DNA from: Variovorax sp. CAN15
GTDB lineage: Bacteria; Pseudomonadota; Gammaproteobacteria; Burkholderiales; Burkholderiaceae_C
DNA: 32,000 bases
Assembly (NCBI RefSeq): GCF_030462475.1
Contig: NZ_JASMRZ010000049.1
Location: forward strand, 1 to 32,000
Direction: 5' to 3'
Positions within the stretch are counted from its first letter, which is position 1. Each line of letters begins with the position of its first letter. The notes beneath the pieces were generated by a model, which did not search any database, was not told where the DNA came from, and saw only the letters and a list, made by a program, of their open reading frames with translations. Shown here one piece after another: positions 6,868 to 31,962 of this stretch. Both the position numbers and the translations under genes were made by a program.

Positions 6868-6880
6868 TCCGAGGAAAACC

Positions 6881-7472: not shown

Positions 7473-7485
7473 AGGAAATTTCGAC

Positions 7486-9284: not shown

Positions 9285-9286
9285 CC

Positions 9287-10958: not shown

Positions 10959-10964
10959 AGTGAA

Positions 10965-11010: not shown

Positions 11011-11021
11011 GCACGCGAAAC

Positions 11022-12080: not shown

Positions 12081-12083
12081 GGC

Positions 12084-12386
12084 TCAGTACTCCTGGCGGA
12101 AGGTGAAGCCGTCGGCCAGGATCGACTTGTCGTAGGATTTCCACGCGATGTGAGAGCCGCGCGGCAGGTTGTCTGGTGCGTCGAGGTTTCCTGCCATCTG
12201 CCAATCCATGAAGAAGTCGCCCGTAACGTCGCCTGCGCATTCATGAGCGTATGGATGGCGGCATGGTGTGAATGCGCCTCCGAAGGTCGGTGGCGTCACC
12301 AGCTCGAGCTGGGCCTGGCTGGGGGTGGTCGCCGGCGCGAGTTGCGCTGCGGCGAAGGATGCGAACGAGATCTGAGTAGCGGACAT
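12084..12386 (-). CDS. Hypothetical protein (100 aa), first gene of the reverse-strand ParB-like operon
   Basis: The ATG at 12386 is preceded by AGGAG (CAGGAGTCCACATG on the minus strand). It ends 3 nt before the ParB-like ATG, and the ParB-like SD (AGGAG) lies within its last codons. No family recognised. Confidence 0.55.
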   Translation of the reverse strand: MSATQISFASFAAAQLAPATTPSQAQLELVTPPTFGGAFTPCRHPYAHECAGDVTGDFFMDWQMAGNLDAPDNLPRGSHIAWKSYDKSILADGFTFRQEY

Positions 12387-12444
12387 GTGGACTCCTGGAA
12401 GTTGGGCTGTTGAAGGGAATACCTTCAGCAGTCGCTTCCTCGCT

Positions 12445-12463
12445 CCCCTCGCAGGGCGAGGGG
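12445..12463. other. Short perfect hairpin CCCCTCGC-AGG-GCGAGGGG
   Basis: 8-bp stem with a 3-nt loop in the phage non-coding region. The same CCCCTCGC arm recurs at the apex of the large hairpin at 12494-12604. Confidence 0.5.
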
Positions 12464-12493
12464 CGGGGGGGAGTGGGTTGCTCGTGCAACAAG

Positions 12494-12604
12494 AAAAATC
12501 CGGCCAGTGCCGGAATCCCGCATAAAAAACACCCCCGTTGCGCCCCTCGCAAAAGCGTGGGGTCAACGGGGGTGTTTGCGGGATTCCAAGCTGGTCGGAT
12601 TTTT
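12494..12604. other. ~111-nt imperfect hairpin in the main phage intergenic region (candidate packaging signal and/or origin structure)
   Basis: Three paired blocks: 12494-12507 with 12591-12604 (one G-T pair), 12512-12522 with 12577-12587, and 12528-12540 with 12564-12576. An apical extension CCCCTCGC-AAAA-GCGTGGGG has one mismatch. In total ~45 bp are paired, with small bulges. Confidence 0.6.
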
Positions 12605-12756
12605 CAGTGGGTAGCTATCGCCAAAAGCACCAGGCGTGACATAGCGCAGCGGGAAGGTAGCGAAGCGGACGGCTGGCGCGACTGGTGACTTGGCGATGCG
12701 GCCTCGAGGTCACGCAGCTGGTGCACACAGATCCGCCGCGGGGCGGCGCCCTCCCC

Positions 12757-13017
12757 TCAATCTGCCCGCATGTCGGGAGTTGAGATCGTCAGCTTGAGGC
12801 CGTCTCGCAGCTCCGGCGTATTCCTGGTCGAGCGCATTTCTCTGTTCGCGTCCATGAAGCCATCGCGCACAGCTATACGAATGACCCAGTAGAGAAGCCA
12901 CAGTGTGATTGCTGTCGAGATCGCTCCAATGATGAAGAGCACGACGAGCTCCTGTCCTGCCTGGTGCTGTGCCTGGCGCACCATCTGGTCAAGGTGTCTT
13001 TGTAGTTGTGGGTCCAT
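12757..13017 (-). CDS. Small membrane protein (86 aa), hypothetical
   Basis: Unbiased composition with one clear TM helix (LVVLFIIGAISTAITLWLLYWVI). It lies inside the predicted prophage, next to attR. No family recognised. Confidence 0.45.
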   Translation of the reverse strand: MDPQLQRHLDQMVRQAQHQAGQELVVLFIIGAISTAITLWLLYWVIRIAVRDGFMDANREMRSTRNTPELRDGLKLTISTPDMRAD

Positions 13018-13018
13018 G

Positions 13019-13048
13019 AAAAAGGCCTCCGATCGGAGGCCGTATTTT
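13019..13048. terminator. Hairpin GGCCTCC-GATC-GGAGGCC flanked by an A-run and a T-run (bidirectional terminator-like)
   Basis: 7-bp GC stem at 13024-13041, with AAAAA at 13019-13023 and TATTTT at 13044-13048. On the minus strand the stem contains the GGAGG that would serve as the SD for ORF 12757-13017. Confidence 0.5.
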
Positions 13049-13121
13049 GCTGGTAGTCTTAACGAGATTTACATTTTTTCAAGCGAATTTCGCTTGACAT
13101 AAGCCCGATTGTGTTCTGCTA

Positions 13122-13149
13122 AATCGAGCTTTTGCACATTGTATCCAAT
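13122..13149. repeat. Second dif-like copy (attR): AATCGAGCTTT-TGCACA-TTGTATCCAAT
   Basis: The spacer and right arm match the 4029-4045 copy except for one G/A difference. The left arm does not resemble a XerD arm (4/11 to ATTTAACATAA). This is what a phage-derived half-site would look like. Confidence 0.55.
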
Positions 13150-13197
13150 GCCACACCAGTTCGGACGACGCTCAAACCTTCTGAGCCTAGACGAAGC

Positions 13198-13878
13198 TCA
13201 CCACTTGCCGTCCTTGGGAACAGCCTTGACCGCGCTGGCCTTTGCATTCGCTGCCGCGGCGATCATCGAGGCGGCTTCCGAGCGGTTCGCCTTGTTGGCG
13301 AAGTCGACGGCGGTCATGCCCAGCTGGTTCTTCATGGTCGTGTCGGCGCCCTCTTCCAGCAGCAGCTTCACGGCGTCGTTGGAGCCGTACATGGCGGCCA
13401 TCATCAACGGCGTGGTGCCGTTGGGCGATTGCGCATCGATGAAGGCGAAGTTCTCGAGCAGCGTCTTCATGATCGCGATCTGGCCGCTGGTGGCTGCGTA
13501 GTGCAGCGGCGTCCAGCCGGTCTTGTTGACGGCTGCGTCGCGCTTGAGAAGCTGGGCGACGATGTCCTGCTGACCCTTGATCGCGGCCAGCATCAGCGGG
13601 GTTTCGTCCTTGGGACTGGCGATGTCCACATCGGTCTGCGGCGCCTCGATCAGCACCTTGATGACTTTCGGCGATGGCTCGCGCAGCGCGATCAGCAGGC
13701 CCGTCTGGCCGTGTTCGTCGCGGGTGTTGGGGTCGAACCCGCGCTGGATCAGGTTGCTGACGCCGCTGGCGTTGTCGCCGCGAACGGCACGGAAGAAGTC
13801 TTCGAATGAGCCGGCGTGCGCTGCAAAAGATGCAGCAATGACAATGAGATAAATCGATTTCTTGAAGTAGTTTTTCAT
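13198..13878 (-). CDS. Secreted ankyrin-repeat protein
   Basis: Signal peptide MKNYFKKSIYLIVIAASFAAHA. Several ANK repeats follow (TPLMLAAIKGQQDIVAQLL, GWTPLHYAATSGQIAIMKTLL, GTTPLMMAAMYGSNDAVKLLLEEGAD). Confidence 0.85.
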   Translation of the reverse strand: MKNYFKKSIYLIVIAASFAAHAGSFEDFFRAVRGDNASGVSNLIQRGFDPNTRDEHGQTGLLIALREPSPKVIKVLIEAPQTDVDIASPKDETPLMLAAIKGQQDIVAQLLKRDAAVNKTGWTPLHYAATSGQIAIMKTLLENFAFIDAQSPNGTTPLMMAAMYGSNDAVKLLLEEGADTTMKNQLGMTAVDFANKANRSEAASMIAAAANAKASAVKAVPKDGKW

Positions 13879-14681
13879 GATTTGACTTCCCTGAACAATG
13901 CTTCGAAATTGTCGCTCGTGGCCTTGGCGACGGCCTCTACGGGCATCTGCCTGAGCTCCGCGATCTGCTGCGCCACGTAGGGCACGTAAGACGGGTTGTT
14001 GGTCTTGCCGCGGTACGGCACCGGCGCGAGATACGGGCTGTCGGTTTCGATCAGCATCCGGTCCAGCGGCACGAAGGCGGCCACGTCGCGCAGGTCCTGC
14101 GCCTTCTTGAAGGTCAGGATGCCGGAGAACGAGATGTAGAAACCGAGGTCGAGCGCGGCGCGGGCCACCTCGGCGGTCTCGGTGAAGCAGTGGAACACGC
14201 CGCCGGCCGCGCCAGGCGAGGCATCCTCGCCCTCTTCCTTCAGGATCGCCAGCGTGTCCGCCGAAGCCTCGCGGGTGTGGATGATCAGCGGCTTGCGGGT
14301 CTGCCGGGCGGCTCGGATGTGCACGCGGAAGCGGTCACGCTGCCACTCCATGTCGGAGATGCTGCGGCCGCCCTTGCGCTCTTCCATCTGGTAGTAGTCG
14401 AGGCCGGTTTCGCCGATGGCCACCACACGCGGCCTCTGAGAAAGGCGCACCAGGTCGTCGACCGAAGGCTCGGCGATGTCCTCGTTGTCGGGGTGCACGC
14501 CCACGCTCGCCCAGAAGTTGTCGTAGCTGGCGGCAAGGGCCTGCACTTCGTCGAATTCCTCGAGCTTGGTGCAGATGCAGAGTGCCCGGTCGACCTGAGC
14601 CGCGGCCATGGCGGCGCGGATCTGCGGCATCTGGCCCGCGAATTCGGGAAACGTGAGGTGGCAGTGGGAGTCTGTGAACAT
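13875..14681 (-). CDS. TatD-family metal-dependent hydrolase (YcfH-like)
   Basis: The ATG at 14681 gives MFTDSHCHLTF, the HxH metal motif. Other motifs are AIGETGLDYY, PLIIHTREA, GVFHCF and ETDSPYLAP. Its stop overlaps the ankyrin gene start. Confidence 0.9.
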   Translation of the reverse strand: MFTDSHCHLTFPEFAGQMPQIRAAMAAAQVDRALCICTKLEEFDEVQALAASYDNFWASVGVHPDNEDIAEPSVDDLVRLSQRPRVVAIGETGLDYYQMEERKGGRSISDMEWQRDRFRVHIRAARQTRKPLIIHTREASADTLAILKEEGEDASPGAAGGVFHCFTETAEVARAALDLGFYISFSGILTFKKAQDLRDVAAFVPLDRMLIETDSPYLAPVPYRGKTNNPSYVPYVAQQIAELRQMPVEAVAKATSDNFEALFREVKS

Positions 14682-14778
14682 CGGAAATGATGGAGTGCGC
14701 GGCGCATGCCCTTCTGGGGCCTCCATGGGAGGTTGCGCCGTCGACCGAGTTCCGCGTCACGAGGACGGGGCGGAAAAC

Positions 14779-15165
14779 TCAGATGGTTTGCGTGGGGCGG
14801 TCGGAGGCCATCGAGCCGCCGAGCGCCGCTTCGATGCGCGCCTTCAGCTGGCGCGACTTCTCGTCGGAAGGAAAACGGATGCCCACGCCCGGAGCCCGGT
14901 TGCCGGCGGCGCGCGGCGGCGTGATCCAGGCGACCTTGCCGGCCACGGGGTAGCGCTGCGGATCTTCCGGTAGCGTCAGCAGCACGTAGACGTCGTCGCC
15001 CAGGCGGTATTCGCGCGTGGTCGGGATGAAGATGCCGCCCTCCGCGAACAGCGGGATGTAGGCCGCGTACAGCGCGCCCTTTTCCTTGATGGCGAGCTGG
15101 ATGACGCTCGGCCGGGCGGGTGCGGAAGATGCTGCGGGCGCAGCGGATGCGGCAGGTTGGTTCAT
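14779..15165 (-). CDS. pilZ: PilZ-domain protein (type IV pilus assembly PilZ type)
   Basis: 128 aa with LYAAYIPLFAEGGIFIPT...LGDDVYVLLTLPED...GKVAWITP...GVGIRF. The conserved holB-pilZ-tatD context supports the call. Confidence 0.8.
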   Translation of the reverse strand: MNQPAASAAPAASSAPARPSVIQLAIKEKGALYAAYIPLFAEGGIFIPTTREYRLGDDVYVLLTLPEDPQRYPVAGKVAWITPPRAAGNRAPGVGIRFPSDEKSRQLKARIEAALGGSMASDRPTQTI

Positions 15166-16178
15166 GGTCGGCGACGAGCGGCAGAGTTTAGGGTGGTTCG
15201 CGCTTCGCTCACAAGCGCTTCTAGCATGAGGCCCGCGTTGAACGGGTGCTCCGCGGTTCTCGCGGCGCTGGCAAGCGACTTCGACCAGCGCGCGAGCGCC
15301 AGCCGCGGCGGCGCCGCCGGCAGGTCGGCGGCGTCGAAGAAACGGGGCGTCGCGCCGTTGCCGACGGCCATCAGGTCATGGCAGAGCTTCTGCAGAGCGC
15401 CGACGGCCTGTGCAGGCGCGTGATCGGCCAGAGCGCCGACGTCGCCACGCGCCATGGCCTTGGGCAGCAGCGCCCAGGCCTTGGGCGACTGCCCTGCCCG
15501 CGCGAGCCGCAGTGCATCGCTGGGCCGGCCGCCGGCAGCGCGCAGCAAGGCGGCCGCGTCGGCCGCCGGCACGTCCAGCGCGACCAGCCAGGCTTGCGCC
15601 TCGGCGGTTTCGGGCCAGGGCAGCGTGAAACCGAGGCAGCGGCTGCGAATGGTCGGCAGCAGCTGCCAGGCGGCTTCGGTCGCGAGCACGAAACGCACGT
15701 CACCGACAGGCTCTTCGAGCGTTTTCAGCAGCGCATTGGCGGTGATAGTGTTCATGCGCTCCGCCGGATACACCAGCACCACCTTGCCACGTCCACGCGC
15801 GCTGGTGCGCTGGGCAAAGCCGACCGCGTCGCGCATCGCCTCGACGCGGATCTCGCGGCTGGGCTTGCGCTTCTTGTCGTCGATGTCCGCTTGCGCCTTT
15901 TCGTCGAGCGGCCAGCCGAGCTCCTGCATCGCCACCTCGGGCATCAGCACGCAGAGGTCGGCATGCGTGCGCACCTCGATGGCGTGGCAGCTCGGGCAAT
16001 TGCCGCAGGCGGTGCCCTCCTCCGTCGGCTGCTCGCACAGCCAGGCGGAAGCCAGGGCCAGCGCCAGTTCGTACTGGCCGATGCCGGACGGGCCTTGCAG
16101 CAGCCAGGCGTGGCCGCGCTGGCGCAGCAGCTCGGTCAGCGGCCGGCGCAGCCAGGGAGACAGTGCCTCGGCGCTCAT
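15162..16178 (-). CDS. holB: DNA polymerase III subunit delta prime
   Basis: 338 aa with HAWLLQGPSGIGQ (degenerate P-loop), a CGNCPSCH zinc module, KVVLVYPAERMN and the TIRSRC sensor motif. It overlaps the tmk stop (ATGA). Confidence 0.9.
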   Translation of the reverse strand: MSAEALSPWLRRPLTELLRQRGHAWLLQGPSGIGQYELALALASAWLCEQPTEEGTACGNCPSCHAIEVRTHADLCVLMPEVAMQELGWPLDEKAQADIDDKKRKPSREIRVEAMRDAVGFAQRTSARGRGKVVLVYPAERMNTITANALLKTLEEPVGDVRFVLATEAAWQLLPTIRSRCLGFTLPWPETAEAQAWLVALDVPAADAAALLRAAGGRPSDALRLARAGQSPKAWALLPKAMARGDVGALADHAPAQAVGALQKLCHDLMAVGNGATPRFFDAADLPAAPPRLALARWSKSLASAARTAEHPFNAGLMLEALVSEARTTLNSAARRRP

Positions 16179-16831
16179 CAGGCTCGACCTCCGGCCAGCA
16201 CGCCGCGCGCGGTCAGTTCGGACTCGATCTGCTGCCAGACCTGCTCGCGCGTCTGGCTGGCGTCGATGCGCACGAAGCGCGGCGCATCGGCGCTAGCGCG
16301 GTCCGCATAGCCCTGCGCCACGCGACGGAAGAACTCGACCGGCTGGGCCTCGAACTTGTCGGGCACGCGGGCGCCGGCCAGCCGCTGCGCGGCGATCTCG
16401 GGTGCCAGGTCAAACCACAGCGTGATTTGCGGCTGCAGCAGCTTTGGGCTGCCGGCCTGCGCCTGAACCCACTGCTCCAGGGTCGACAGCACGGCGGCGT
16501 CGAAACCGCGCCCCGCGCCCTGGTAGGCGAAGGTGGCGTCGGTGAAACGGTCGCACAGCACCACGTCGCCGCGTGCCAGTGCGGGCTCGACGACCTGCGC
16601 GATGTGATCGCGCCGCGCTGCGAACACCAGCAGCGATTCGGTCAGCGGGTCCATCGGCTTTTCGAGGATCAGCCCCCGCAGCGTTTCAGCCAACGGCGTG
16701 CCGCCGGGTTCGCGGGTGCGGACGACCGTGCGGCCCTGCGCCTTGAACAGCGCCTCCAGCGCATCGAGATGACTCGACTTTCCCGCGCCGTCGATGCCTT
16801 CCAGCGTCAGAAACAAGCCTTGGTCACTCAT
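16178..16831 (-). CDS. tmk: Thymidylate kinase
   Basis: The ATG at 16831 gives [20 protein letters not shown] (P-loop). Other motifs are [21 protein letters not shown] and [15 protein letters not shown]. The start overlaps the mltG stop. Confidence 0.92.
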
Positions 16832-17853
16832 TGGGTCGTCGCCTTCGGTCTGGAATCGCCGCCGCCGCGCTGGTAGCGGTTGACCGCACGGTTGTGGTCG
16901 TTGAGCGAGCTGCTGAACTGGCTGGTGCCGTCGCCGCGCGACACGAAATACAGCGATTTGCTTTGCGCCGGCTGCACCGCAGCCAGCAGCGCCGCCTTGC
17001 CCGGCATGGAAATCGGCGTGGGCGGCAGGCCGCCGCGCGTGTAGGTGTTCCACGGCGTGTCGGTCTGCAGGTCTTTCTTGCGCAGGTTGCCGTCGAAGGC
17101 GGTGCCCATGCCGTAGATGACGGTCGGGTCGGTCTGCAGCGGCATGCCGATGCGCAGGCGGTTGGCGAACACTGCTGCGATTTCCGCCCGGTCGTTGGCC
17201 TTTCCTGTCTCCTTTTCGACAATACTGGCCAGAACAAGCGCCTCATCGGCCGATTTCAGCGGCAAGTCGGAGGCGCGGGCGGCCCAGGCGGCTTCGAGCT
17301 TCTTGTCCATGGCGCGCATCGCGCGCTGCAGCAGGGCGATGTCGGTCGAGCCCTTCGAATAGGTATAGGTGTCCGGGAAGAATCGGCCTTCAGGATGCAC
17401 GCCCGGCCTTCCCAGCTTGGCCATCAGCGCCTCGTCGGTGATGCCCACGCTCTCCGGCTTGAGCTGGTCGGCCTTGGCGAGCGCAGCGCGCACCTGGCGG
17501 AAGTTCCAGCCTTCCACCAATACAAGGCTTCGCGTGGCCTCCTCGCCGCGCACCAGGATGCTGAGCAGAAGCTTGGGCGTGACGCCGCGTTCCAGCTCGT
17601 AGCTGCCGGCGCGCATCTGGCGGTCTTGCCCGGAAATGCGGAACCACAGGTAGAGGAGTTGAGGCTGGACGTCGACGCCGGTATCGGCCACCGCCTGGGC
17701 AATGCCGCGCGGCGTGGTGCCGGGTTCGACCGACAGGTCGACGCTGGGCGCGGGCAGCTTGAGCGGCTGGTGCACCCACCAGAGGCCGGCGCCGCCGAGC
17801 GCGAGCGCGACCAGGGCGGCGAGCAGGAAAAGCGTGAGGAAGAAGCTGCGCAC
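16828..17853 (-). CDS. mltG: Endolytic murein transglycosylase MltG (YceG family)
   Basis: GTG start, an N-terminal TM segment, then YceG motifs ([61 protein letters not shown]). Confidence 0.9.
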
Positions 17854-17978
17854 GGATGCGATGTGAGGATGACGGAGGAAAACAGGAGGCTGTTAACGAA
17901 AAATCGGTGCCCTTGCGAACCGCAGGGCTGGAGGCCCTGCCGCCCCGAAGGAACAGGCCCGGCCATGATAATTCAGCG

Positions 17979-18905
17979 ATGACCACTGTCGTTCTCAATG
18001 GGGTGACCGCCCTCTCCCATCTCGGCGTGATCCGCGCCGAAGGTCCGGACGCCGCGAGTTTCCTTCACGGCCAGCTCACACAGGACTTCTCCCTCCTCGG
18101 CGCCTCCGACGCCCGCCTTGCCGCCCTTTGCACCGCGAAGGGCCGTGTGATCGCGAGTTTCCTCGGCATCAAGCCGCAACCTGAGCTGATCCTGCTGGTG
18201 TGCAGCCGCGACATCCTCGCCGCCACGCTCAAGCGGCTGTCCATGTACGTACTGCGCGCCAAGGTCAAGCTGACTGATGCGACCGAGCAGGTCGCCCTCT
18301 ACGGCCTGGCCGGCACCGCGCTCACCGCCAACGGGCTCGATGCGGCTGCCCAGCCCGGCAAGCGCACGGCCGTCGGCGATGAAGTCAGCGCCGTATCGCT
18401 CTACCCCGCCGACGGCGTTCCGCGCGCGCTGTGGATCGCCCCGGCCGGCCACGCGGCGCCCGCGGGCCCGGCCCTGGACGACAACCTCTGGCAGTGGAGC
18501 GAGGTTCGCAGCGGCATCGTGACCCTGACCACGCCGATCATCGACGCCTTCGTGCCGCAGATGATCAACTACGAATCCGTGGGAGGGGTGAATTTCAAGA
18601 AGGGCTGCTATCCCGGCCAGGAAGTGGTCGCGCGAAGCCAGTTCCGCGGCACGCTGAAGCGGCGCACCTATCTCGTCCAGGCCGATGCGCCGGTGTCCGT
18701 GGGGCAGGAAGTGTTCGCTGCCGGCGACGCCGAACAGCCTGTCGGCACCGTGGCGCAGGCCGCGCCGGCCCCCGATGGCGGCTGGTCCGCGCTGATCTCC
18801 ATGCAGATCGCCGCGCTGGAGGCTGGTGGCCTGCGCGCGGGTGCGGCCGACGGCCCGGTGCTCACGGTCGAGCCACTGCCCTATCCGCTGCTCGAAGACA
18901 TCTGA
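17979..18905 (+). CDS. ygfZ: Folate-binding Fe-S cluster repair/tRNA-modification protein YgfZ
   Basis: The ATG at 17979 gives MTTVVLNGVTALSHLGVIRAEGPDAASFLHGQLTQD. The signature KGCYPGQE motif is present. Confidence 0.85.
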   Translation: MTTVVLNGVTALSHLGVIRAEGPDAASFLHGQLTQDFSLLGASDARLAALCTAKGRVIASFLGIKPQPELILLVCSRDILAATLKRLSMYVLRAKVKLTDATEQVALYGLAGTALTANGLDAAAQPGKRTAVGDEVSAVSLYPADGVPRALWIAPAGHAAPAGPALDDNLWQWSEVRSGIVTLTTPIIDAFVPQMINYESVGGVNFKKGCYPGQEVVARSQFRGTLKRRTYLVQADAPVSVGQEVFAAGDAEQPVGTVAQAAPAPDGGWSALISMQIAALEAGGLRAGAADGPVLTVEPLPYPLLEDI

Positions 18906-23265: not shown

Positions 23266-25602
23266 ATGCAGCGCACAGTCCAAGTCCACACCGTCCTGAG
23301 CTCGGAGCAGCTCAAGTTCCGCTCGATGCGGGGACGGGAGGGACTCAGCGAGCTCTTCGAGTTCGAGGTGGACATGGTCAGCAGCAGCTTCAGCCTCGAT
23401 CTGAAGCAATTGCTCGGCACTTCGCTCACGCTGGAGCTGGCCGACGAAGGCGCACCGCGCTTCCTCAACGGCACCGTGGTGCGCTTCGAGCTCGTGGGCC
23501 GCGCCAACGAGACCGGCCGCCACTACATCTACCGCGCGCTGGTGCAGCCGTGGCTCTGGTACCTCACGCGCACCACCGACTGCCGCATCTTCCAGAACAA
23601 GAGCGTGCCCGAGGTGCTCGACGAAGTGCTGGGCAAGTACGGCTTCCAGTTCGAGAAACGCCTCACGGGCAGCTACCCCACCTGGGAATACTGCGTGCAG
23701 TACCAGGAAAGCGACTTCGCCTTCGTGAGCCGCCTCATGGAGCACGAAGGCATCGCCTACCACTTCGAGCACAGCAACGGCTCGCACCTGCTGGTGCTGG
23801 CCGACGACTCGGGCAGCTACCAGCCGCTGCCGGGCCACGCCAGCATCACCTACCGCCCGCGCGACCGCGTCGTCAACGCGCTGGAGCCCTGCATCGACCA
23901 GTGGCGCGTGGCCGAGCAGATCACATCCGGCCGCGTGATGCTCGACGACTTCGACTTCAGGAAGTCGCGCGCCTCGCTGCAAAGCGTGCAGCAAGACCCC
24001 AAACCTCACGAGCACTCGACCTACGAGGTCTACGAATGGCTCGGCGGCTACACCGAGCACCAGCAGGGCGATGCCTACGCCAGGATCCGCCTGCAGGAGC
24101 TTCAGTGCGCGCACGAACTGGCCTCGGGCCACACCAACGTGGTGGGCATGGCGCCGGGCTACCTGTTCCAGATGACGCACTGCCCGCGCGAGTCGGACAA
24201 CCGCGAGTACCTCGTCACCGAAACCCGCTACGACCTGCGCGAGCCCGAGTACTCCTCGGGCGGCAACAGCGAATCGGTGTGCGAGTTCGACTTCACCGTG
24301 CTGCCTTCCTCCGTGCCCTACCGCCCCGCGCGCAAGACGCCGCGCCCGCGCACCAACGGCCCGCAGACCGCCACCGTGGTCGGCCCCGAGGAAATCTGGA
24401 CCGACCGCTTCGGCCGCGTGAAGCTGCAGTTCCGCTGGGACCGCTACGGCCAGTCGAACGAGAACAGCTCCTGCTGGGTGCGCGTGTCCAGCAGTTGGGC
24501 CGGCGCCAACTACGGCACCATGCACATGCCGCGCGTGGGCCAGGAAGTGATCGTCGATTTCATCGGCGGCGAGCCCGACCGCCCCATCGTCACCGGCCGC
24601 GTCTACAACAGCGACCAGATGCCGCCGTGGGAGCTGCCCGCCAATGCCACGGCCAGCGGCATCCTCACGCGCTCCAGCACCGGCGGCGCGGCCAACCAGG
24701 CCAACATGCTGCGCTTCGAGGACCGCACGGGCGCCGAGCAGATCCTGCTGCATGCCGAGCGCAACCTCGACGTCGAAGTGGAAGCCGACGAGACTCGCGA
24801 CGTGGGCGGCAACCGCACCACCGTCATCCACGCCAACGAAAAGCTCGACGTGCTGGGCACCCGCACCACGACCATCACCGACAAGGAAACCGCCACCTAC
24901 AACGGCGGCGAAGAACGACTCGTGAACAGCGGCGGCGTCGAGACCATCAACGGCGGCCAGACCCGCACGGTGAACGGTGGCGAGACCGAGACCATCCACG
25001 GCGGCGAAACGCGCACGGTGACGGGCGGGCAGACCGAGACCATCTCCGGCGGCGAGACCCGCAGCATCACCGGCGGCGAGAGCGAAACCATCGCGGGAGG
25101 CGAAACACGCACCATCACCGGCGGCGCGACGTGGACCATCACCGGAGGTCTCACGGCCACGGTGGACGGCTCCGAGATTCTCACCACCAAAGGACCGCGC
25201 ACCGAGAACATCACCGCGGGCGAGACCCGCAACATCACCGGCACCGTCACCGAGAACGTCAGCGTCGAGATCATCGTGAACGCGCCGAAGGTGACCTACA
25301 ACGTGCCGCAGCACACCATCAGTTCCTCCCAGGAGAACAACTGGCGGATCGCGCGCGCCAGCGGCTGCGTCTTCCGCTTCGGCGCGGTGGCGACCTCGTT
25401 CGACGTCTGGGGCGCCAGAGCGCAGATCTATGCGGCCCTCAACCTCCAGCTGGCCACGGTGAAGATCGACATCTCGGCCTTCAAGAACAAGAACAACGGG
25501 CTCGCCCTCGAAACCTCGGGCGCCAACGTGAAGGCCGCGGGCGCCAAGATCCGCAGCGGCGGTCTGGCGATCCAGGCCAAGGTCATGAGCATCTTCAGCT
25601 GA
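23266..25602 (+). CDS. vgrG: Type VI secretion spike protein VgrG
   Basis: 778 aa. The gp27-like N-terminus has LSELFEFEVDMVS, YRALVQPWLWYLTRTTDCRIFQNKSVPEVL, ESDFAFVSRLMEHEGIAYHFEH and GRVKLQFRWDR. A gp5 OB-fold (MPRVGQEVIVDFIGGEPDRPIVTGRVYN) and a beta-helix of octapeptide repeats follow. Confidence 0.95.
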   Translation: MQRTVQVHTVLSSEQLKFRSMRGREGLSELFEFEVDMVSSSFSLDLKQLLGTSLTLELADEGAPRFLNGTVVRFELVGRANETGRHYIYRALVQPWLWYLTRTTDCRIFQNKSVPEVLDEVLGKYGFQFEKRLTGSYPTWEYCVQYQESDFAFVSRLMEHEGIAYHFEHSNGSHLLVLADDSGSYQPLPGHASITYRPRDRVVNALEPCIDQWRVAEQITSGRVMLDDFDFRKSRASLQSVQQDPKPHEHSTYEVYEWLGGYTEHQQGDAYARIRLQELQCAHELASGHTNVVGMAPGYLFQMTHCPRESDNREYLVTETRYDLREPEYSSGGNSESVCEFDFTVLPSSVPYRPARKTPRPRTNGPQTATVVGPEEIWTDRFGRVKLQFRWDRYGQSNENSSCWVRVSSSWAGANYGTMHMPRVGQEVIVDFIGGEPDRPIVTGRVYNSDQMPPWELPANATASGILTRSSTGGAANQANMLRFEDRTGAEQILLHAERNLDVEVEADETRDVGGNRTTVIHANEKLDVLGTRTTTITDKETATYNGGEERLVNSGGVETINGGQTRTVNGGETETIHGGETRTVTGGQTETISGGETRSITGGESETIAGGETRTITGGATWTITGGLTATVDGSEILTTKGPRTENITAGETRNITGTVTENVSVEIIVNAPKVTYNVPQHTISSSQENNWRIARASGCVFRFGAVATSFDVWGARAQIYAALNLQLATVKIDISAFKNKNNGLALETSGANVKAAGAKIRSGGLAIQAKVMSIFS
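24901..25260 (+). repeat. 15 consecutive 24-bp (octapeptide) repeats encoding the VgrG beta-helix
   Basis: The units are NGGEERLV NSGGVETI NGGQTRTV NGGETETI HGGETRTV TGGQTETI SGGETRSI TGGESETI AGGETRTI TGGATWTI TGGLTATV DGSEILTT KGPRTENI TAGETRNI TGTVTENV. The period is exactly 24 nt and all units are in frame. Confidence 0.9.
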
Positions 25603-25622
25603 GCACCACGACGACATCGCCC

Positions 25623-26012
25623 ATGCAGTTCTGGTTGCCAGTGATTTCCGGTGTGCTGATCGTCCTCTTCCTGGCGTTGGTGATAGTGCACACCGTGCGC
25701 AGCAACAGGCCCTACCGCGAGGAAGAGCAGCGCTACGAGCGGCTCGCGGTCAAAGGCCAGCCCGCCAGCGCCGAGGTGCTGGCCCTGCGCGAACTGGCGC
25801 AGGGCACCTACGACAACGACGTCGAACTGAGGCTGCGCACCGTCGCCCTGGCCGGTCGGCCGCCCCTGGAACAGACGCTCAAGACCCGCATAGCGCGTGA
25901 ACTCGTGGTCAATTTCATGCCGGGCCAGACCATCCATGTGCTGGTCGACCCGGCCGACACCACGGCCGTGGCCATCGACCGCCGCCGGTCGACCACGACC
26001 ATTTCCCGCTGA
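25623..26012 (+). CDS. Small single-pass membrane protein (129 aa), VgrG-linked, unknown function
   Basis: The ATG at 25623 lies 21 nt after the vgrG stop. The protein has an N-terminal TM helix (FWLPVISGVLIVLFLALVIVHTV) and a soluble ~100-aa domain. It is the C-terminal part of shadow ORF 23550-26012. Confidence 0.55.
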   Translation: MQFWLPVISGVLIVLFLALVIVHTVRSNRPYREEEQRYERLAVKGQPASAEVLALRELAQGTYDNDVELRLRTVALAGRPPLEQTLKTRIARELVVNFMPGQTIHVLVDPADTTAVAIDRRRSTTTISR

Positions 26013-26034
26013 TCGCGCGCATCTCTCCGTTTCC

Positions 26035-28698
26035 ATGAAAGTCATCAAGCCGCTCCGGCTCAGCGTACTGAGTCGCCCCTTTCCATGGCAGCGCCGCCAG
26101 CGGCTTGGCCTTACCGTGATCGCAATGACGGGCACGGATGCCGTGCCGGTGCTCTATCCCGACGCCGAACTCTGGCCCCTGGTGGCAGAGGAGATCGGCG
26201 AGCAAGGCGTGCTCGACCTGGGCATGCCCAAGCGCAGTGCGGAATTTCTCGCCACCGGCCACGCCTACACCGCACACCAGCAGACGCGCAACCAGTGCAT
26301 GGTGAAGATGCGCGTCGGCACGATCGAGAAGAGTCTGCGCGTGTCGGGCGACCGCTATTGGCTCGACAGGCGCGCCACGCCGCCTCGAGACTTCGAGAGC
26401 ATGCCGCTCGACTGGCAGCGCGCCTATGGCGGCGCCTCGTTCGCGGACAACCCGCTGGGCATCGGTGCCGACGAAGAGACCATCAACGGCGTGCGCACGC
26501 GCCGGCTTCCGAACATCGAGGCGCCCGACGCGCTCATCCAGCGCCACGACCAGCAGCTCACACCTGCCGGCTTCGGCGCCATCGACGTGATGTGGCCCCG
26601 GCGCTTCGCCCGCGTCGGCAAGGACTACGGCGAGCGCTGGGCGAGAGAAGACTTTCCGGCCTTCTCCGGCGACATGGACTGGCACCTCTTCAACGCGGCG
26701 CCCGAAGACCAGTGGTGGCGCGACACCGACAGCATTCCCGGCGGGGCCTCCTACGAAATCTGGAACATGCATCCAGGCAAGCCCTGCCAGGAAGGCCGTC
26801 TGCCCGACTGGCGCGCGCGATGCTTCCTCACCCTGGCGGGCGAAGCCGGAGAGACCACCTTCACCGATGTCCCCATGCGGATGACCACCGCCTGGTTCTT
26901 TCCGCACCGTGAACGCATCGTGCTCATCTATCACGGCGTGGCGGACATCCGGGAAGACGATGCCGCCGACGTCCTCCACCTGATGCCCGCGCTCGAGGAA
27001 TCGGCTGCCGAGCCGCTGCCGGCCAGCCACTACCGGTCGGTCATGCAGCAGCGGCTCGATACGGAAAGCGGCGCGCTCTACAGCTTTCGTGATCGCGATC
27101 TGCTTCCCGCTGCGGCAATCGCTCCCTGGCTCGACACCATCTCGCTGAAAGACCGTCCGCTCGGCCCGCTGGCGAGCAATGCGCAGCGGCACGGAGAGTG
27201 GATGCGCGAGCAGATGCGCCAGAAGATGATCGGCGACGGGCAGGACCCGGATCGCTACTTTCCGCCGCCGGACCCGGCCGACGAACTGCCCACGCTGGAT
27301 GCGCTGCCCGAATTCGTCGCACGCAGCAAGCGCCTCCAGGAAGAAGCCAGGCAGAAACTGCAGGCACAGCGGCAGGAGCTGTCCGAGACGCTTCGCGCGG
27401 GCGCGGCCGAAGCCGGTCCCGTGGGGCCGGACATGGCCCCCCTGCTCGCGCTGGCCGAGGGCCGCGAGCCTCCTGCGCTCAAGGGCCCTCCTTCCGCGGC
27501 AATGGCACCGCACATCCAGAGCATGGCTGCATCCATCTCGGAAGTGCCGGGAACGCTCGCCGCCGGCATGGGCCCGGTGACCGAACTCCTGGGCCGCGGG
27601 GAGTTCATCACCGCGGCGCAGCGCAAGATGTACCTCCACAGTGCCCACCATCAGGATGCGGCCGACCCGATGACGCCGCAGCGGGCCGCCGAGGCACGCC
27701 AGCAGGCAACGCAGATCCTCGCGGGCAGCCGGGACTTTTCGGACATGGACCTGACCGGTGCCGACCTGTCGGGCATGGACCTCAGTGGAGCGTGCTTTCG
27801 CGGCGCCCTGCTGGAGAGCGCCAACCTGCGCGGCGCGCGGCTCGACAACGCCGATTTCTCCCGCGCAGTGCTCGTGCGTGCGTGCCTCGACGGCACCTCG
27901 CTGCGCGAGACGCTGCTCGAAGGGGCCAACCTCGGTTTCGCCCAATGCAGGCAGACCGTGTTCGCCGCCGCGAATCTGCGCCACGCCATGCTCGAGAACA
28001 TCCTGTGCGAGGACTGCGACTTCAGCGCTTCCCTGTGGGAAGACAACACAGTGGTCGAGGCATCGTTTGCGCGCTGCAGCTTTCGCCGCGCGAGCCTCAA
28101 GGTGGTCATGTTCCTTGAGAAGGTGCACCTGGATCAGCTCGACTTCGAGGAGGCGACGCTCTTCAAGCTGCACTTCGTGCGCTGCAAGCCCGGCGCGATC
28201 GGTTTTGCCGGCGCAAGGCTCGAAAGCTGCGTGTTCGTGGACGTGCAGGCCGACGGATGCGTGGATTTCACGCGTGCCAAGCTGCGCACCACCTGCGTGG
28301 TGGGCACCAGCAGCTTCAGACAGGCGAAGTTCGCTGCTGCCCATCTGCGCGAATGCAGCCTGCGCGCGGTGGCGCTTTCCGGTGCCTGCCTGGCCGATGC
28401 CCGACTGGACAACAGCGATTTCTCCGGATGCGATCTCACGCGGGCCGATTTCTCGCGCAGCAACGCGCGCGACTCGCGCTTCGTGCGAGCCAATCTCCAG
28501 CACGCCAGCCTGAGGGACGCCGACCTGATCGACGCGAGCTTCCAGAAAGCCGATCTGCGCCTCGCAGACCTGCGCGGCGCCAACCTTTTCCGCGCCGACG
28601 TCTCCCAGAGCCTCATGGACGGCTCCACGCTGCTCGACGGCGCCTACACGCACCTGGCCAAGGTCTATCCGGTGCGCCAGGACGCTGCGGCCGCATGA
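26035..28698 (+). CDS. DUF2169-domain protein fused to a C-terminal pentapeptide-repeat domain (887 aa)
   Basis: The ATG at 26035 gives MKVIKPLRLSVLSRPFPWQ..., a typical DUF2169 N-terminus. From ~nt 27730 to the end the sequence is continuous A(D/N)LxX-type pentapeptide repeats (DLTGADLSGMDLSGACFRGALLESANLRGARLDNADFSRA ... ADLRLADLRGANLFRADVS). Confidence 0.8.
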   Translation: MKVIKPLRLSVLSRPFPWQRRQRLGLTVIAMTGTDAVPVLYPDAELWPLVAEEIGEQGVLDLGMPKRSAEFLATGHAYTAHQQTRNQCMVKMRVGTIEKSLRVSGDRYWLDRRATPPRDFESMPLDWQRAYGGASFADNPLGIGADEETINGVRTRRLPNIEAPDALIQRHDQQLTPAGFGAIDVMWPRRFARVGKDYGERWAREDFPAFSGDMDWHLFNAAPEDQWWRDTDSIPGGASYEIWNMHPGKPCQEGRLPDWRARCFLTLAGEAGETTFTDVPMRMTTAWFFPHRERIVLIYHGVADIREDDAADVLHLMPALEESAAEPLPASHYRSVMQQRLDTESGALYSFRDRDLLPAAAIAPWLDTISLKDRPLGPLASNAQRHGEWMREQMRQKMIGDGQDPDRYFPPPDPADELPTLDALPEFVARSKRLQEEARQKLQAQRQELSETLRAGAAEAGPVGPDMAPLLALAEGREPPALKGPPSAAMAPHIQSMAASISEVPGTLAAGMGPVTELLGRGEFITAAQRKMYLHSAHHQDAADPMTPQRAAEARQQATQILAGSRDFSDMDLTGADLSGMDLSGACFRGALLESANLRGARLDNADFSRAVLVRACLDGTSLRETLLEGANLGFAQCRQTVFAAANLRHAMLENILCEDCDFSASLWEDNTVVEASFARCSFRRASLKVVMFLEKVHLDQLDFEEATLFKLHFVRCKPGAIGFAGARLESCVFVDVQADGCVDFTRAKLRTTCVVGTSSFRQAKFAAAHLRECSLRAVALSGACLADARLDNSDFSGCDLTRADFSRSNARDSRFVRANLQHASLRDADLIDASFQKADLRLADLRGANLFRADVSQSLMDGSTLLDGAYTHLAKVYPVRQDAAAA

Positions 28699-29780
28699 CG
28701 CCGCACCGACTGCAGGCCATGGTGCAGCGCGGCGAGCCGATCCGGGAAAGAAGCTGCAGGGGCTGGCGCCTCGACGGATTGGATCTGTCCGGCGGAGTGT
28801 TCATCGACGTCGACTTCGACGGTGTGAGCTGCATCGGCACGCGTTTCGAGGAAAGCCAGTTCGAAAGCTGCACCTTCGCAGGTGTGCGGCTCAACGACGC
28901 GCAGTTGAAGAAGGCGGCCTTCGCGCAATGCGAACTCCCGTCGGCAGACCTGAAGGCCGCTGTCCTGGACGACGCCGTATTCCATCGCTGCAAGCTGCCG
29001 GACAGCGATTTCTCCCAGGCCAGCGTTGTCGATACCAAGTTCATGGAGAGCACCCTTTCGCGCAGCCGCTTCGCTGCCGGGATGCTCGAGCGGACGCTGT
29101 TCTTCCAGTCGCCGCTGGACGGCGCCGACCTCTCGGGCGCCCGTCTGGACAAGGTCGTGTTCTACCAGGTCGACCTGCGTGAAACCGCGCTCGCCGGCGC
29201 GCGCTTCGAGCGGGTCGTCTTCGTCGAATCCCGCCTTGGCGGCCATGATTTCTCCAGGCATCACTTTGCGCTGTGCCAGTTCACGGACGCTGACCTCGAG
29301 GGCTGCAACTTCGAGGGCGCGCACATGGCCCGGTGCAACTTCAAGGGTGCCAGGCTGCGCGGCGCGATTCTGCGCGGCGTCCAGGCGCCGCAGGCGCTCT
29401 TTCCCGAGGCCGACCTGAGCAGGGCTGATGCGCGGGGCGCGCATTTCGACCAGAGTCTCTGGATCGATGCCGTGCTCGCAGCCACCGATTTCGGCGGCTC
29501 CAGCATGCAGCAGTGCATCTTCCACCGCGCCGATTGCACCGGCGCCAGCTTTGGCGGTGCAGACCTCACCTACGCCGACTTTTCCGGCGCCGTGCTCGCG
29601 GGCTCGAACCTCGATGCCCGTCTCTTTCGCACCCAGCTGCACGGGGCACGGGACGTTCCCGACGCCCTGCGCGGCAATGCCGGCGTGCTGCCGAACGATC
29701 CGGACCTGTTCGAGGCGCAGCGCTGGTCCGAGCGCCGCAGGCCACATTCCATTCCATCCACGAAAGGCGAAATCCCATGA
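28695..29780 (+). CDS. Pentapeptide-repeat protein (361 aa)
   Basis: The ATG overlaps the upstream stop (ATGA at 28695-28698). Almost the whole length is pentapeptide repeats (LDLSGGVFIDVDFDGVSCIGTRFEESQFESCTFAGVRLNDAQL ... GADLTYADFSGAVLAGSNLDARLF). Confidence 0.85.
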   Translation: MTPHRLQAMVQRGEPIRERSCRGWRLDGLDLSGGVFIDVDFDGVSCIGTRFEESQFESCTFAGVRLNDAQLKKAAFAQCELPSADLKAAVLDDAVFHRCKLPDSDFSQASVVDTKFMESTLSRSRFAAGMLERTLFFQSPLDGADLSGARLDKVVFYQVDLRETALAGARFERVVFVESRLGGHDFSRHHFALCQFTDADLEGCNFEGAHMARCNFKGARLRGAILRGVQAPQALFPEADLSRADARGAHFDQSLWIDAVLAATDFGGSSMQQCIFHRADCTGASFGGADLTYADFSGAVLAGSNLDARLFRTQLHGARDVPDALRGNAGVLPNDPDLFEAQRWSERRRPHSIPSTKGEIP

Positions 29781-30448
29781 AGAACATCGCAGCATTGCGC
29801 AGCCCGCAGGCAGGCACCGCCGACGCCCCTGTGCAGCGCCTCGGCAAGGTGGTCGAGTTCCTGAGCGAAGGATCGCTGTACCGGGTGGAATGCGAGGACG
29901 GCGCCTGGCAATGCCGCCGCGCCGCCAGCTGCCTGCTGCGGCCCGAGCCGGGCGACACGGTGCTGATCTCCGGTCCCGATCGCTACCACGTCTACCTGAT
30001 CGCGGTGATTGATCAGGCAGACGCCAGCGCGGCGCGCATCGAGACCACCGGCCGCCTCGTGCTGGCCGCGCCCATGGGCGGCGTGCAGATCGAAAGCCGC
30101 GAGGCCATCCGGCTGCAATCCGCCAAGGCCGTGGAAGTCAACAGCGCGCGCTTCGCACTCAATGCGAGCGAGGCCGATTGCAAGGTGGACCGCCTCGACT
30201 ACGTCGGAAACGCGGTCCGGGCCATGACGGCGAGCATCCATGTCGTCGGGCGCCTGTGCGAGACCGTCACGGACCGGCTGGTGCACATCAGCCGCACGGC
30301 TTTCCGCATGACCGAGCAAACCGAGCAGTTGCGCTGCGGCCAGCTCGACTACGAAGCGACCGACCTTGCCCGCATCCATGCGTCGCAGACGGTGGTCACG
30401 GCGCAGGCGGTCGTGAAAGTCGACGCCAAGCAGATCCACATGGGCTGA
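29777..30448 (+). CDS. DUF3540-like protein (223 aa)
   Basis: The ATG overlaps the upstream stop (ATGA at 29777-29780). The call rests on position (after the pentapeptide proteins, before the DUF4150 gene) and general sequence character. The family is assigned from memory of this conserved arrangement. Confidence 0.55.
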   Translation: MKNIAALRSPQAGTADAPVQRLGKVVEFLSEGSLYRVECEDGAWQCRRAASCLLRPEPGDTVLISGPDRYHVYLIAVIDQADASAARIETTGRLVLAAPMGGVQIESREAIRLQSAKAVEVNSARFALNASEADCKVDRLDYVGNAVRAMTASIHVVGRLCETVTDRLVHISRTAFRMTEQTEQLRCGQLDYEATDLARIHASQTVVTAQAVVKVDAKQIHMG

Positions 30449-30477
30449 CCGCCTTCCAACAAGGAGGAGCCGACACC

Positions 30478-30864
30478 ATGTTCGCCAACTGCCAGATGAT
30501 GGGAATGGACCTGGCCTTTCCCGACGTGTGCAAGACACCGCCGGCCATTCCGATCCCCTACCCGAACTTCGCGCTCGGCCCGACCGCGATACCCAATGCG
30601 TGGAACATCCTCTTCATGTTCGCGCCGGCACACAACCTCGCGACCGTCACGCCGCTGACCAATGGCGACAACCCGGGCGTCACGCTGGGCGTGATCTCTC
30701 CTTCGGTGATGGGCCCTTCGCGCCACATCACCGGGTCGTTCACCGTGCTCCTGAAGGGCAGCCCTGCCACGCGCATGACCAGCCTTTCCGTACAGAACCG
30801 AAGCAACGCGCTGGGCATGCGCATTGTGCCCAGCCAATTCAAGGTGTTGATGCTCGCGCCTTGA
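30478..30864 (+). CDS. PAAR-like DUF4150 protein, short form with no C-terminal toxin domain (128 aa)
   Basis: Strong SD (AAGGAGGA) upstream. The protein starts MFANCQMMGMDLAFPDVCKTPPAIPIPYPNFA, the characteristic DUF4150 opening (PDVCKTP...P.PYPN). It ends after the core domain. Confidence 0.8.
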   Translation: MFANCQMMGMDLAFPDVCKTPPAIPIPYPNFALGPTAIPNAWNILFMFAPAHNLATVTPLTNGDNPGVTLGVISPSVMGPSRHITGSFTVLLKGSPATRMTSLSVQNRSNALGMRIVPSQFKVLMLAP

Positions 30865-30981: not shown

Positions 30982-31962
30982 TTACTCTGCTTTCACGCCC
31001 GCGGTGCGGATCACCTTTCCCCATTTCGCCGTTTCGGAGGTAATGAACGCATCGAATTCCTCCGGCGTGCTGCCCGCCGCAATGGTGCCCATCGCATCCA
31101 GCTTGGCGCGCGTGTCGTCGCTCCTGATGATGCGCGCCACCTCTTCCGACATGCGCTTGACGATGTCGCGCGGCGTGCCCGCCGGCGCCAGCATGCCGGC
31201 CCAGGTGCTGCCGGTGAAGCCCGCGAAACCCTGCTCGATGAAGGTCGGCACATCGGGCGCCGCCGCCAGTCGCTTGTCGCCCGCCACGCCGATCAGCCGA
31301 ACCTTGCCGGCCTTGGCCTGGTTGATGAGGCCCGTCGGCGCATCGAAGAAAAGCTGGATCTGCCCGCCCATCAGGTCCGTCAGCGCAGGCACCGCTCCGC
31401 GGTACGGGATGTGGATCATGTAGGTCTGCGTCAGCGACTTCCACAGCTCGGTGGTCAGGTGCGCGGCCGAGCCGTTGCCCGAGGAGCCGAAGCTCACCTT
31501 GGCCGGATTGGCGCGCGCATAGTCGATGAGCTCGCGCGCCGTCTTGAAAGGCGCATCGACGTTCACGGCCGCCAGCAGCGGCGACACGCCCATCAGCGAA
31601 ACGCCCGTCAGGTCCTTGCGCGGGTCATAGGGCAGCTTGGGGTACAGCGTGGTGTTCGCCGCATAGGCTGCGATGACAACGCCGAAAGTCGTGCCGTCCG
31701 GCGCCGCCTTGGCGATCGCATCGACGCCGATCAGGCTGTTCGCACCCGGCTTGTTGTCGACCAGCACAGGCTGTCCCAGCTTCGTCTGCAGCCCGACCTG
31801 CACCAGCCGCGCCATCTGGTCGGTGAAGCCGCCGGGCGTGTACGGCACGATCACGCGGATCGGCTTGGTGGACCATGCGGTCTGCGCGAACGACGGCAAG
31901 GGGAGGCTTGCGGCGGCGGTGGCGAGCGTGAAGCGGCGGCGGGACAGCGTGGCTTGGGACAT
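30982..31962 (-). CDS. Bug-family (TctC-like) tripartite tricarboxylate transporter substrate-binding protein
   Basis: Tat-like signal (SRRRFTLATAAASLPLPSFAQ). Motifs are KPIRVIVPYTPGGFTDQMARL, VDNKPGANSLIG, GSSGNGSAAHL and PYRGAVPALTDLMGGQIQ. Confidence 0.9.
   Translation of the reverse strand: MSQATLSRRRFTLATAAASLPLPSFAQTAWSTKPIRVIVPYTPGGFTDQMARLVQVGLQTKLGQPVLVDNKPGANSLIGVDAIAKAAPDGTTFGVVIAAYAANTTLYPKLPYDPRKDLTGVSLMGVSPLLAAVNVDAPFKTARELIDYARANPAKVSFGSSGNGSAAHLTTELWKSLTQTYMIHIPYRGAVPALTDLMGGQIQLFFDAPTGLINQAKAGKVRLIGVAGDKRLAAAPDVPTFIEQGFAGFTGSTWAGMLAPAGTPRDIVKRMSEEVARIIRSDDTRAKLDAMGTIAAGSTPEEFDAFITSETAKWGKVIRTAGVKAE

Follow-up and report, generated by a model that had tools for sequence, protein, structure and literature searches.

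A 32,000-nucleotide stretch of DNA from Variovorax sp. CAN15, referred to here as the window, carries at 23266-30864 an island of six same-strand genes that opens with vgrG and is tightly packed, its spacers being short or negative. The genes that follow vgrG encode a small membrane protein, called here the slot protein after its place in the gap between vgrG and tvpAB, and four homologues of Tvp and Tag proteins, accessory parts of the spike of a type VI secretion system (T6SS). The features are as follows:

23266-25602, + strand: vgrG, 778 residues, with the Pfam domains Phage_GPD, Phage_base_V and Gp5_trimer_C
25623-26012, + strand: slot membrane protein in the vgrG-tvpAB gap, 129 residues, single-pass transmembrane
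26035-28698, + strand: tvpAB/tagAB homologue, 887 residues, DUF2169 and pentapeptide domains
28695-29780, + strand: tvpB/tagB homologue, 361 residues, pentapeptide only
29777-30448, + strand: tvpC/tagC homologue, 223 residues, DUF3540
30478-30864, + strand: paar1/tagD homologue, 128 residues, Tox-PAAR-like/DUF4150
30982-31962, convergent, downstream of the paar1 homologue: TctC/Bug receptor gene (Pfam scan)

ATGA start/stop overlaps join tvpAB to tvpB at 28695 and tvpB to tvpC at 29777, the slot start codon lies 21 nt past the vgrG stop, and an AGGAGG ribosome-binding site is present 9 nt 5' of the start codon of the PAAR-like gene. An earlier note, made from the letters of this DNA, had listed the same six products, their coordinates and both overlaps, and these are borne out by Pfam scanning and by independent gene calls on the contig of the same genome (L082), which return six identical products. 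Two of its counts need correcting: five genes, not six, follow vgrG, and the pentapeptide repeats, said to take up more than half of the coding capacity, occupy ~605 of the 2506 encoded residues (~24%) when measured from domain extents.

The note had also called the island an orphan. No T6SS core gene is found in the window or in the 10 kb past its end, a range that takes in 23 kb upstream of the island and 10 kb downstream, and it is a truly orphan vgrG island. Pfam scans, together with a scan of the VgrG tail, detect no toxin domain in any island product, which agrees with the note, and no further open reading frame (ORF) lies between the PAAR-like gene and the convergent TctC gene.

Domain content and the Class III Tvp assignment

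Judged by domain content and gene order, the cassette belongs to a category that has been described under three names: Class III Tvp, DUF2169 synteny type C, and tagAB/tagB/tagC/tagD. All four accessory architectures are detected by Pfam in the defining Class III order. TvpAB combines a DUF2169 domain (residues 39-300, E 7e-75), a helical linker and pentapeptide families spanning residues ~561-870; the product of tvpB, the gene directly 3' of tvpAB, matches Pentapeptide in eight stretches (E 1.5e-45). DUF3540 (E 2.4e-56) is the sole domain within the 223 residues of TvpC, which has no gp27 domain. The PAAR-like protein (Tox-PAAR-like, E 1.5e-36) is the bare core that the earlier note had described, its domain covering residues 9-112 of 128 with no effector extension. 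In NCBIfam, the VgrG is recognized as TssI/VgrG (E 7e-189), and no specific model exists for the slot protein, TvpC or the PAAR-like protein.

The VgrG comprises Phage_GPD (residues 24-325, E 5e-101), Phage_base_V (379-447) and Gp5_trimer_C (464-574) domains, followed by a region (residues ~560-677) that matches the T4 gp5 β-helix; no domain scores above threshold in the last 120 residues. Class III VgrG proteins are reported to be 700-800 residues long with an unusually long β-prism, and their PAAR proteins to be bare cores (PMC13373197). With 778 residues and gp5 repeats predicted to extend to ~677, the window protein fits this type of long prism without a toxin domain.

TvpC and the DUF3540 protein of the Enterobacter plasmid pIMI-6 have 36% identity (E 2e-46) and a C-terminal KVDxxQIHMG tip in common, the part of the family that is most conserved. 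The AlphaFold2 (AF2) monomer model of TvpC has a predicted local distance difference test (pLDDT) score of 71.9, its C-terminal 40 residues being poorly modelled. Results of a Foldseek search with this model give the R2 pyocin spike (4s37, E 6e-5) as the best match, along with the PVC central spike and P2 gpV and, lower in the list, P. aeruginosa VgrG1 (4mtk); TM-scores are low throughout. A sequence-profile comparison of TvpC with the window VgrG is not significant, and the apparent relation of the two proteins is seen in fold comparison only.

Beyond the Burkholderiales, tblastn finds DUF3540 genes in the listed plasmid records of Enterobacter, Raoultella, E. albertii and Pantoea, and both annotated loci inspected, those of Enterobacter pIMI-6 and Pantoea piersonii, have the same gene order. 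The VgrG of the window and that of pIMI-6 are 42% identical over 612 residues and diverge completely beyond. In Enterobacter cloacae pIMI-6 (L080), the Class III cassette (5129-12966) and a full T6SS are carried on a conjugative IncFII plasmid.

The counterpart for which function has been established is the vgrG1-vai1-SMDB11_2246-tvpAB-tvpB-tvpC-paar1 locus of Serratia marcescens Db10 (Monlezun, Earl & Coulthurst, EMBO J 2026, PMC13373197), assigned to Class III of the three Tvp classes defined there. In Serratia, tvpAB, tvpB, tvpC and paar1 are each needed for VgrG1-dependent killing and, when VgrG2 is absent, for Hcp secretion. Serratia TvpC, a DUF3540 protein made of an OB-fold and a short β-prism, mimics a VgrG without gp27. 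In the pre-complex, Paar1 sits on the TvpC tip, TvpAB wraps around it and TvpB fastens the assembly, a model validated by interface mutants; TvpC then gives way to VgrG1. Neither TvpAB nor TvpB is ever found among secreted proteins; where the PAAR protein lacks an effector domain, the two are proposed to occupy the baseplate cavity.

By analogy with Serratia, the DUF2169 domain of the Variovorax TvpAB would capture the hydrophobic DUF4150 PAAR-like protein, which would then be seated on the tip of a TvpC trimer serving as a short, gp27-less spike mimic. The pentapeptide β-helices of TvpAB and TvpB would strap it in, with TvpB as the 'seat belt', before the pre-complex is passed to the long-prism VgrG, which would displace TvpC. 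The Tvp proteins would remain unsecreted, chaperoning the tip and probably filling the part of the baseplate cavity that otherwise holds an effector domain. The payload would be the VgrG-PAAR spike itself, together with any Hcp-borne cargo of that firing, and the T6SS core machine would be encoded elsewhere in the genome. We consider it very probable that the island is such an orphan (auxiliary) Class III Tvp spike-assembly cassette, with this mechanism and with an immunity role for the slot protein, to which we return below.

By homology, then, the pentapeptide and DUF3540 proteins would be non-secreted assembly factors. The earlier note had tied DUF2169 to the loading of a DUF4150 protein, which is supported; it had also taken the function of the pentapeptide and DUF3540 components as not established, and the payload as an open question. 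Since the exact module has already been characterized genetically and biochemically in Serratia (PMC13373197), the novelty claim fails, and the question is superseded by published functional work. The locus is one of hundreds of homologous cassettes and adds little on this 'spike decoration'. What is partly new is the small membrane protein that accompanies the cassette in Burkholderiales, the rest being already known.

Two other explanations of the island can be weighed at this point. That the pentapeptide proteins are themselves a secreted payload, a DNA-mimic or host-targeting one like Qnr/MfpA or the type III secretion effectors PipB/PipB2, is highly improbable. Sub-threshold matches of TvpAB and TvpB to the Qnr, MfpA, PipB2 and HetL pentapeptide families would favour it, as would the lack of any other candidate effector in the island, but these matches lie far below the family cut-offs and reflect the shared repeat only. 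The Serratia proteins, moreover, are absent from secretomes and required for firing itself, as read from Hcp secretion, which marks them as assembly factors, and modelling with interface mutants puts their pentapeptide domains around the TvpC/VgrG-PAAR tip (PMC13373197). In the portions of PMC8747328 considered, the DUF2169 and pentapeptide parts of the B. glumae protein are both needed for virulence, which likewise speaks against a separate payload. Scarcely credible is the idea that the island is what is left of a T6SS cluster that is decaying and has lost its function. It could appeal to the absence of core genes within ~33 kb and to a promoter/terminator scan that finds nothing above chance, although the lack of a σ70-like promoter is uninformative at 67% GC. 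Against it, the six ORFs are intact and translationally coupled, with a third-position GC content (GC3) of 0.78-0.93; several assemblies keep the same island at one and the same chromosomal site, and ~20 other orphan loci keep all parts. Compared with the closest species-representative locus, that of Variovorax sp. 679 (L001), the six window products have identities of 84-99%, with near-identity in the PAAR protein (99%) and the VgrG N-terminus (96%).

Census of related cassettes

Recurrence of this gene combination in Burkholderiales, stated in the earlier note, is supported by a census. A genome collection with one genome per species was scanned with a DUF3540 alignment, yielding 250 relatives, of which the best 79 loci were analysed. 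Most Variovorax loci have the gene order of the window; in Alcaligenaceae and one Pseudomonas metagenome-assembled genome (MAG) the order is TvpC-VgrG-TM-TvpAB-TvpB-PAAR, TM being the transmembrane protein. Core T6SS genes lie within 10 kb in 59 of the 79 loci, and ~20 are orphans like the window. The PAAR protein is the most conserved part of the cassette (80-99% identity among Variovorax orphan cassettes).

Several genomes have one cassette inside a T6SS cluster and one or two orphans besides, as in sp. 679 (L012 and L001) and UC74_104 (L016, with L064 and L077). The within-genome paralogues are 36-54% identical in TvpAB, TvpB and TvpC; two lower values for the pentapeptide domain (3% and 23%) come from the truncated tvpAB of L016. 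Given such low paralogue identity, each spike appears to have its own private helpers. Class III cassettes circulate as self-contained orphan islands, and a genome can hold several orthogonal copies, each with private chaperones. In Variovorax boronicumulans DS4417 (L028), two complete Class III cassettes stand in tandem (~3054-8400 and 8815-16416), each with a slot gene.

The census also shows departures from the published arrangement. In ~25 Bordetella, Achromobacter and Advenella loci, DUF3540 occurs without its partners within 10 kb, mostly inside a core T6SS cluster. In a set of Bordetella, Achromobacter and Schauerella loci (L014, L019, L020, L024, L043, L049, L059, L062, L065, L067 and L068), the DUF3540 gene, at about 10001-10650, is located inside a core T6SS cluster, between tssC-side genes and tssG, and genes for VgrG, DUF2169, pentapeptide and DUF4150 proteins all go undetected within ±10 kb. 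It follows that the published partners of the VgrG mimic do not always adjoin it.

A further departure concerns the PAAR protein. In nine loci (L037, L039, L045, L053, L054, L058, L066, L073 and L074), which represent the Alcaligenaceae/Pseudomonas-MAG version of the cassette, the DUF4150 protein is 289-310 residues long and has a Gly-rich linker together with a C-terminal domain. The Orrella domain (L066; PAAR gene at 17336-18268, + strand) matches a GH-E HNH nuclease toxin (E 2.9e-25), and the gene is followed by an overlapping immunity-like ORF of 203 residues; the other extended PAAR proteins have a common, unassigned C-terminal domain with conserved motifs that look HNH-like by eye. These PAAR-toxin fusions in Class III loci contradict the generalization, in the part of the 2026 Tvp paper considered here (PMC13373197), that Class III has small effector-less PAARs, and they qualify it accordingly.

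The slot membrane protein and the VgrG C-terminus

Of the 54 loci that have vgrG upstream of tvpAB, 52 carry in the gap between the two genes (389-1135 bp) a + strand ORF of ~125-188 residues with an N-terminal hydrophobic helix. The two exceptions (L018 and L035) gave a negative gap in the script, and the family profile still finds a copy in both. The 52 ORFs and the window protein form one BLAST cluster, and the profile detects a single copy in each cassette and finds nothing in the rest of the loci. The slot gene persists where the PAAR protein carries a nuclease toxin, and at L066, the one such locus checked, the immunity-like ORF after the PAAR-toxin gene is separate from it. Cassettes with a much longer VgrG (982-995 residues) are without it: an orphan Class III cassette on the 2.48-Mb replicon of Variovorax paradoxus VAI-C (L087, 2155-9913) has a 982-residue VgrG and no slot gene before DUF2169, and none is annotated in the TagAB-5 locus of Burkholderia savannae (L086), where the VgrG has 994 residues. 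The portions of the Tvp, DUF2169 and T6SS-accessory literature considered here contain no description of this DUF3592-like slot protein.

The slot protein has no Pfam match at E<=0.01. Its match to DUF3592 (PF12158), at 15 bits and E 0.041, is below the gathering threshold of 25.3 bits, and 12 of the 52 family members match DUF3592 at E<=0.1 (best E 1.2e-4). An identical protein in Variovorax sp. CAN2819 bears the NCBI name 'DUF3592 domain-containing'. A family-profile search of 1.84 billion representatives retrieves 126 relatives, and 5 of the 10 relatives checked pass the DUF3592 threshold (27.9-53.7 bits). Taking into account these sub-threshold matches and the reach of the profile to threshold-passing relatives, the slot family is classed by sequence as a divergent branch of DUF3592, the relation holding at superfamily level only.

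An AF2 model of the slot protein, built from a 31-sequence alignment (pLDDT 88.9), predicts a helix at residues 4-44, whose first part (~residues 4-24) forms the hydrophobic segment in the membrane, and after the helix a small β-barrel of five strands. A Foldseek search with the slot model returned weak, generic OB-fold matches only. The corresponding protein of Enterobacter pIMI-6 is also 129 residues long with an N-terminal transmembrane segment, has no Pfam match and has only three relatives. It is followed on the plasmid by an unannotated 71-residue ORF (7956-8171) that resembles a truncated second TM/β protein; a comparison of this ORF with the slot family gives a weak hint of relation (E 0.0013, probability 19%).

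The slot protein and the VgrG tail are the fastest-diverging parts of the cassette, with mean identities of 32% and 26%, compared with 62% for the VgrG N-terminus and 72% for PAAR. In the subset of loci with near-identical VgrG N-termini, slot divergence tracks the VgrG tail best (Spearman 0.72 versus 0.62 for DUF2169). The VgrG gene itself has a mosaic appearance. Among orphan Variovorax cassettes (the window compared with L071, L076, L077, L078 and L079) its first 380 residues are 87-97% identical, whereas identity often drops to only 25-55% in the prism and tail, in the slot protein and in the Tvp proteins; L071/L076/L079 and L077/L078 have 76-86% identity in the prism and only 23-25% in the last 60 residues. 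The contrast between the conserved N-terminus and the divergent rest suggests one or more recombination junctions inside vgrG, a break being placed at about residue 580, with the downstream module diverging as a unit. Many VgrG tails end in 'GG + 12-13 hydrophobic residues', an ending that looks structural, perhaps a PAAR platform.

In the proposed mechanism, the slot protein would be a dedicated, co-diverging partner of the variable VgrG C-terminus. The gene at its position in Serratia, vai1, encodes a proven immunity protein against a VgrG1-dependent depolarizing activity, also described as binding VgrG (PMC13373197). By analogy with Vai1, the slot protein is most likely a self-protection (immunity) factor. 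The statement of the earlier note that the island has no immunity gene is doubtful, the membrane protein that it listed occupying the vai1 position and being a conserved member of the cassette.

A number of results pull the other way, both for the cassette reading as a whole and for the immunity role within it. The mechanism is carried over wholly from Serratia, the enterobacterial counterparts are only ~36-42% identical, and the window contains no T6SS core cluster of this genome. In Serratia itself, VgrG1 is only suspected to be the toxic principle; the membrane-depolarizing activity of the spike is attributed to it, and a cryptic C-terminal peptide has been proposed (PMC13373197). Vai1 belongs to DUF3192; the window protein has no match to DUF3192 at E<=10, and the aligned slot family, 52 members in all, has none at E<=0.1; hhalign finds no relation between the slot family and the pIMI-6 slot protein (E 0.36). 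Lysine and arginine residues average 0.46 before the helix and 3.1 after it in 70 single-transmembrane members, and by the positive-inside rule the β-domain is probably cytoplasmic. Over all loci, slot divergence correlates with that of every cassette part (Mantel r 0.29-0.51), and the co-variation is non-specific. The hydrophobic moment of the window VgrG tail is 0.26, compared with an internal control mean of 0.28.

Two candidate signatures were set aside on these values. Co-variation of the slot protein with the VgrG tail is not decisive as a toxin-immunity signature, being no stronger than with other parts over all loci and only modestly the best in the subset with a common VgrG N-terminus. 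A 'cryptic peptide' formed by an amphipathic helix finds no support in the tail of the window VgrG, its moment being no higher than the control.

The alternative to immunity is that the spike is structural, with no toxicity of its own, and that the slot protein is a membrane-anchored, cytoplasm-facing assembly or docking factor that, for example, accepts the long VgrG-PAAR tip at the membrane complex or brings about release of the Tvp cap. We regard this as rather unlikely, though a live rival. In its favour, the charge pattern predicts an N-out/C-in orientation across 82 family members, the 12 two-helix variants agreeing with the charge-based topology; each cassette has strictly one copy, and neither orphan copies nor arrays are seen, which would be unusual in immunity genes; slot divergence correlates also with TvpAB, TvpB and PAAR; cassettes with a 982-995-residue VgrG do without the protein; and the window VgrG has no toxin domain. 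On the other side, T6SS toxins that target membranes are typically countered by small immunity proteins of the inner membrane, and a mean identity of 32% is very fast for a factor docking on conserved machinery. No such gene is annotated in the cassettes of Pantoea piersonii and of Burkholderia TagAB-5, which counts against a docking function, and the Serratia gene at the slot position is the proven immunity gene (PMC13373197, as above). As the slot protein is DUF3592-like, not DUF3192, and its β-domain is predicted by charge to be cytoplasmic, it may act either in immunity, which we rate the likelier role, or in docking.

We tentatively advance, as a possibility with somewhat less than an even chance, that the slot protein is an obligatory seventh component of Burkholderiales Class III cassettes, not described before, and represents a new immunity family matched to the hypervariable VgrG prism and tail. 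If true, this would lend independent, cross-order support to the unproven idea of the 'toxin-less' long-prism VgrG as a polymorphic membrane toxin and would supply tractable natural VgrG-tail/immunity pairs, Variovorax genomes having up to three divergent cassettes. A conserved, fast-diverging membrane protein tied to the variable VgrG C-terminus bears on the effector question of these spikes.

Surroundings of the island and comparison with known systems

The remainder of the window is unrelated to the T6SS and includes malQ-like, tatD, holB, tmk, mltG, esterase and Fe-alcohol dehydrogenase genes. Between the malQ-like gene and tatD, a low-GC stretch (4000-13000; GC 0.58-0.63 compared with 0.67-0.70 elsewhere) bears filamentous-phage hallmarks, namely a Phage_CRI/G2P replication initiator (E 2.5e-14), a Zot-like assembly ATPase (E 3.6e-13) and a ParB_N protein; example ORFs lie at 4997-6358 (+), 9750-10958 (+) and 11022-12080 (-). 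This stretch is probably an integrated inovirus-type prophage. At its edge, adjoining tatD, a gene at 13198-13878 (-) encodes an ankyrin-repeat protein of 225 residues (Ank_2, E 3.6e-39). Ankyrin-repeat proteins are unusual in free-living Betaproteobacteria.

Of the known systems, the Serratia locus resembles the island in gene order and domain architecture, in a VgrG of similar length without a classical toxin domain (786 residues there, 778 here) and in a small β-rich protein with an N-terminal transmembrane segment encoded right after vgrG. The slot protein shares with Vai1 both this position and a gross architecture of a helix followed by β-strands. However, the cassette of the window is an orphan, whereas that of Serratia belongs to the main T6SS cluster, at its 5' end. 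The β-domain of the DUF3592-like slot protein is probably cytoplasmic, in contrast to Vai1, which belongs to DUF3192 and is predicted to be periplasmic (PMC13373197), and no equivalent of SMDB11_2246 is found in the window cassette.

Synteny type C, which accounts for ~37% of DUF2169 genes (Sachar et al., JBC 2025, PMC11883445), is the same category in the sections of that study considered here: a gene for DUF2169 fused to a pentapeptide repeat protein (PRP), pentapeptide and DUF3540 genes, vgrG, and a separate DUF4150 gene. These sections do not settle what the pentapeptide domain and DUF3540 do, and they describe no conserved membrane slot gene.

The tagAB/tagB/tagC/tagD genes of Burkholderia T6SS-3, -4 and -5 are, in the portions of the two reports considered, needed for Hcp secretion, sheath assembly and virulence (a J Bacteriol 2026 review, PMC13584744; a B. 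glumae study, PMC8747328). These four homologous accessory genes have the same order as in the window, and in B. savannae they include products named TagAB-5 and TagB-5 by the NCBI annotation pipeline PGAP. Unlike the island, the Burkholderia genes lie inside core clusters, and the B. savannae TagC is only ~24% identical; Burkholderia VgrG5 is reported to have a C-terminal effector domain (PMC13373197, in the parts considered).

The Agrobacterium Tap2(DUF2169)-Tde2 system and the Pseudomonas and Vibrio systems of Class I/II share with the window the use of DUF2169 as a chaperone that brings a DUF4150 domain onto its cognate VgrG, a role that in the window would fall to TvpAB; the earlier note had drawn this analogy. 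They differ from it in that the toxin is fused to the PAAR-like domain, and in having neither a pentapeptide domain nor TvpB. Class I, in addition, is without TvpC, and Class II has a short DUF6484 TvpC together with TvpD, whereas the window has a DUF3540 TvpC.

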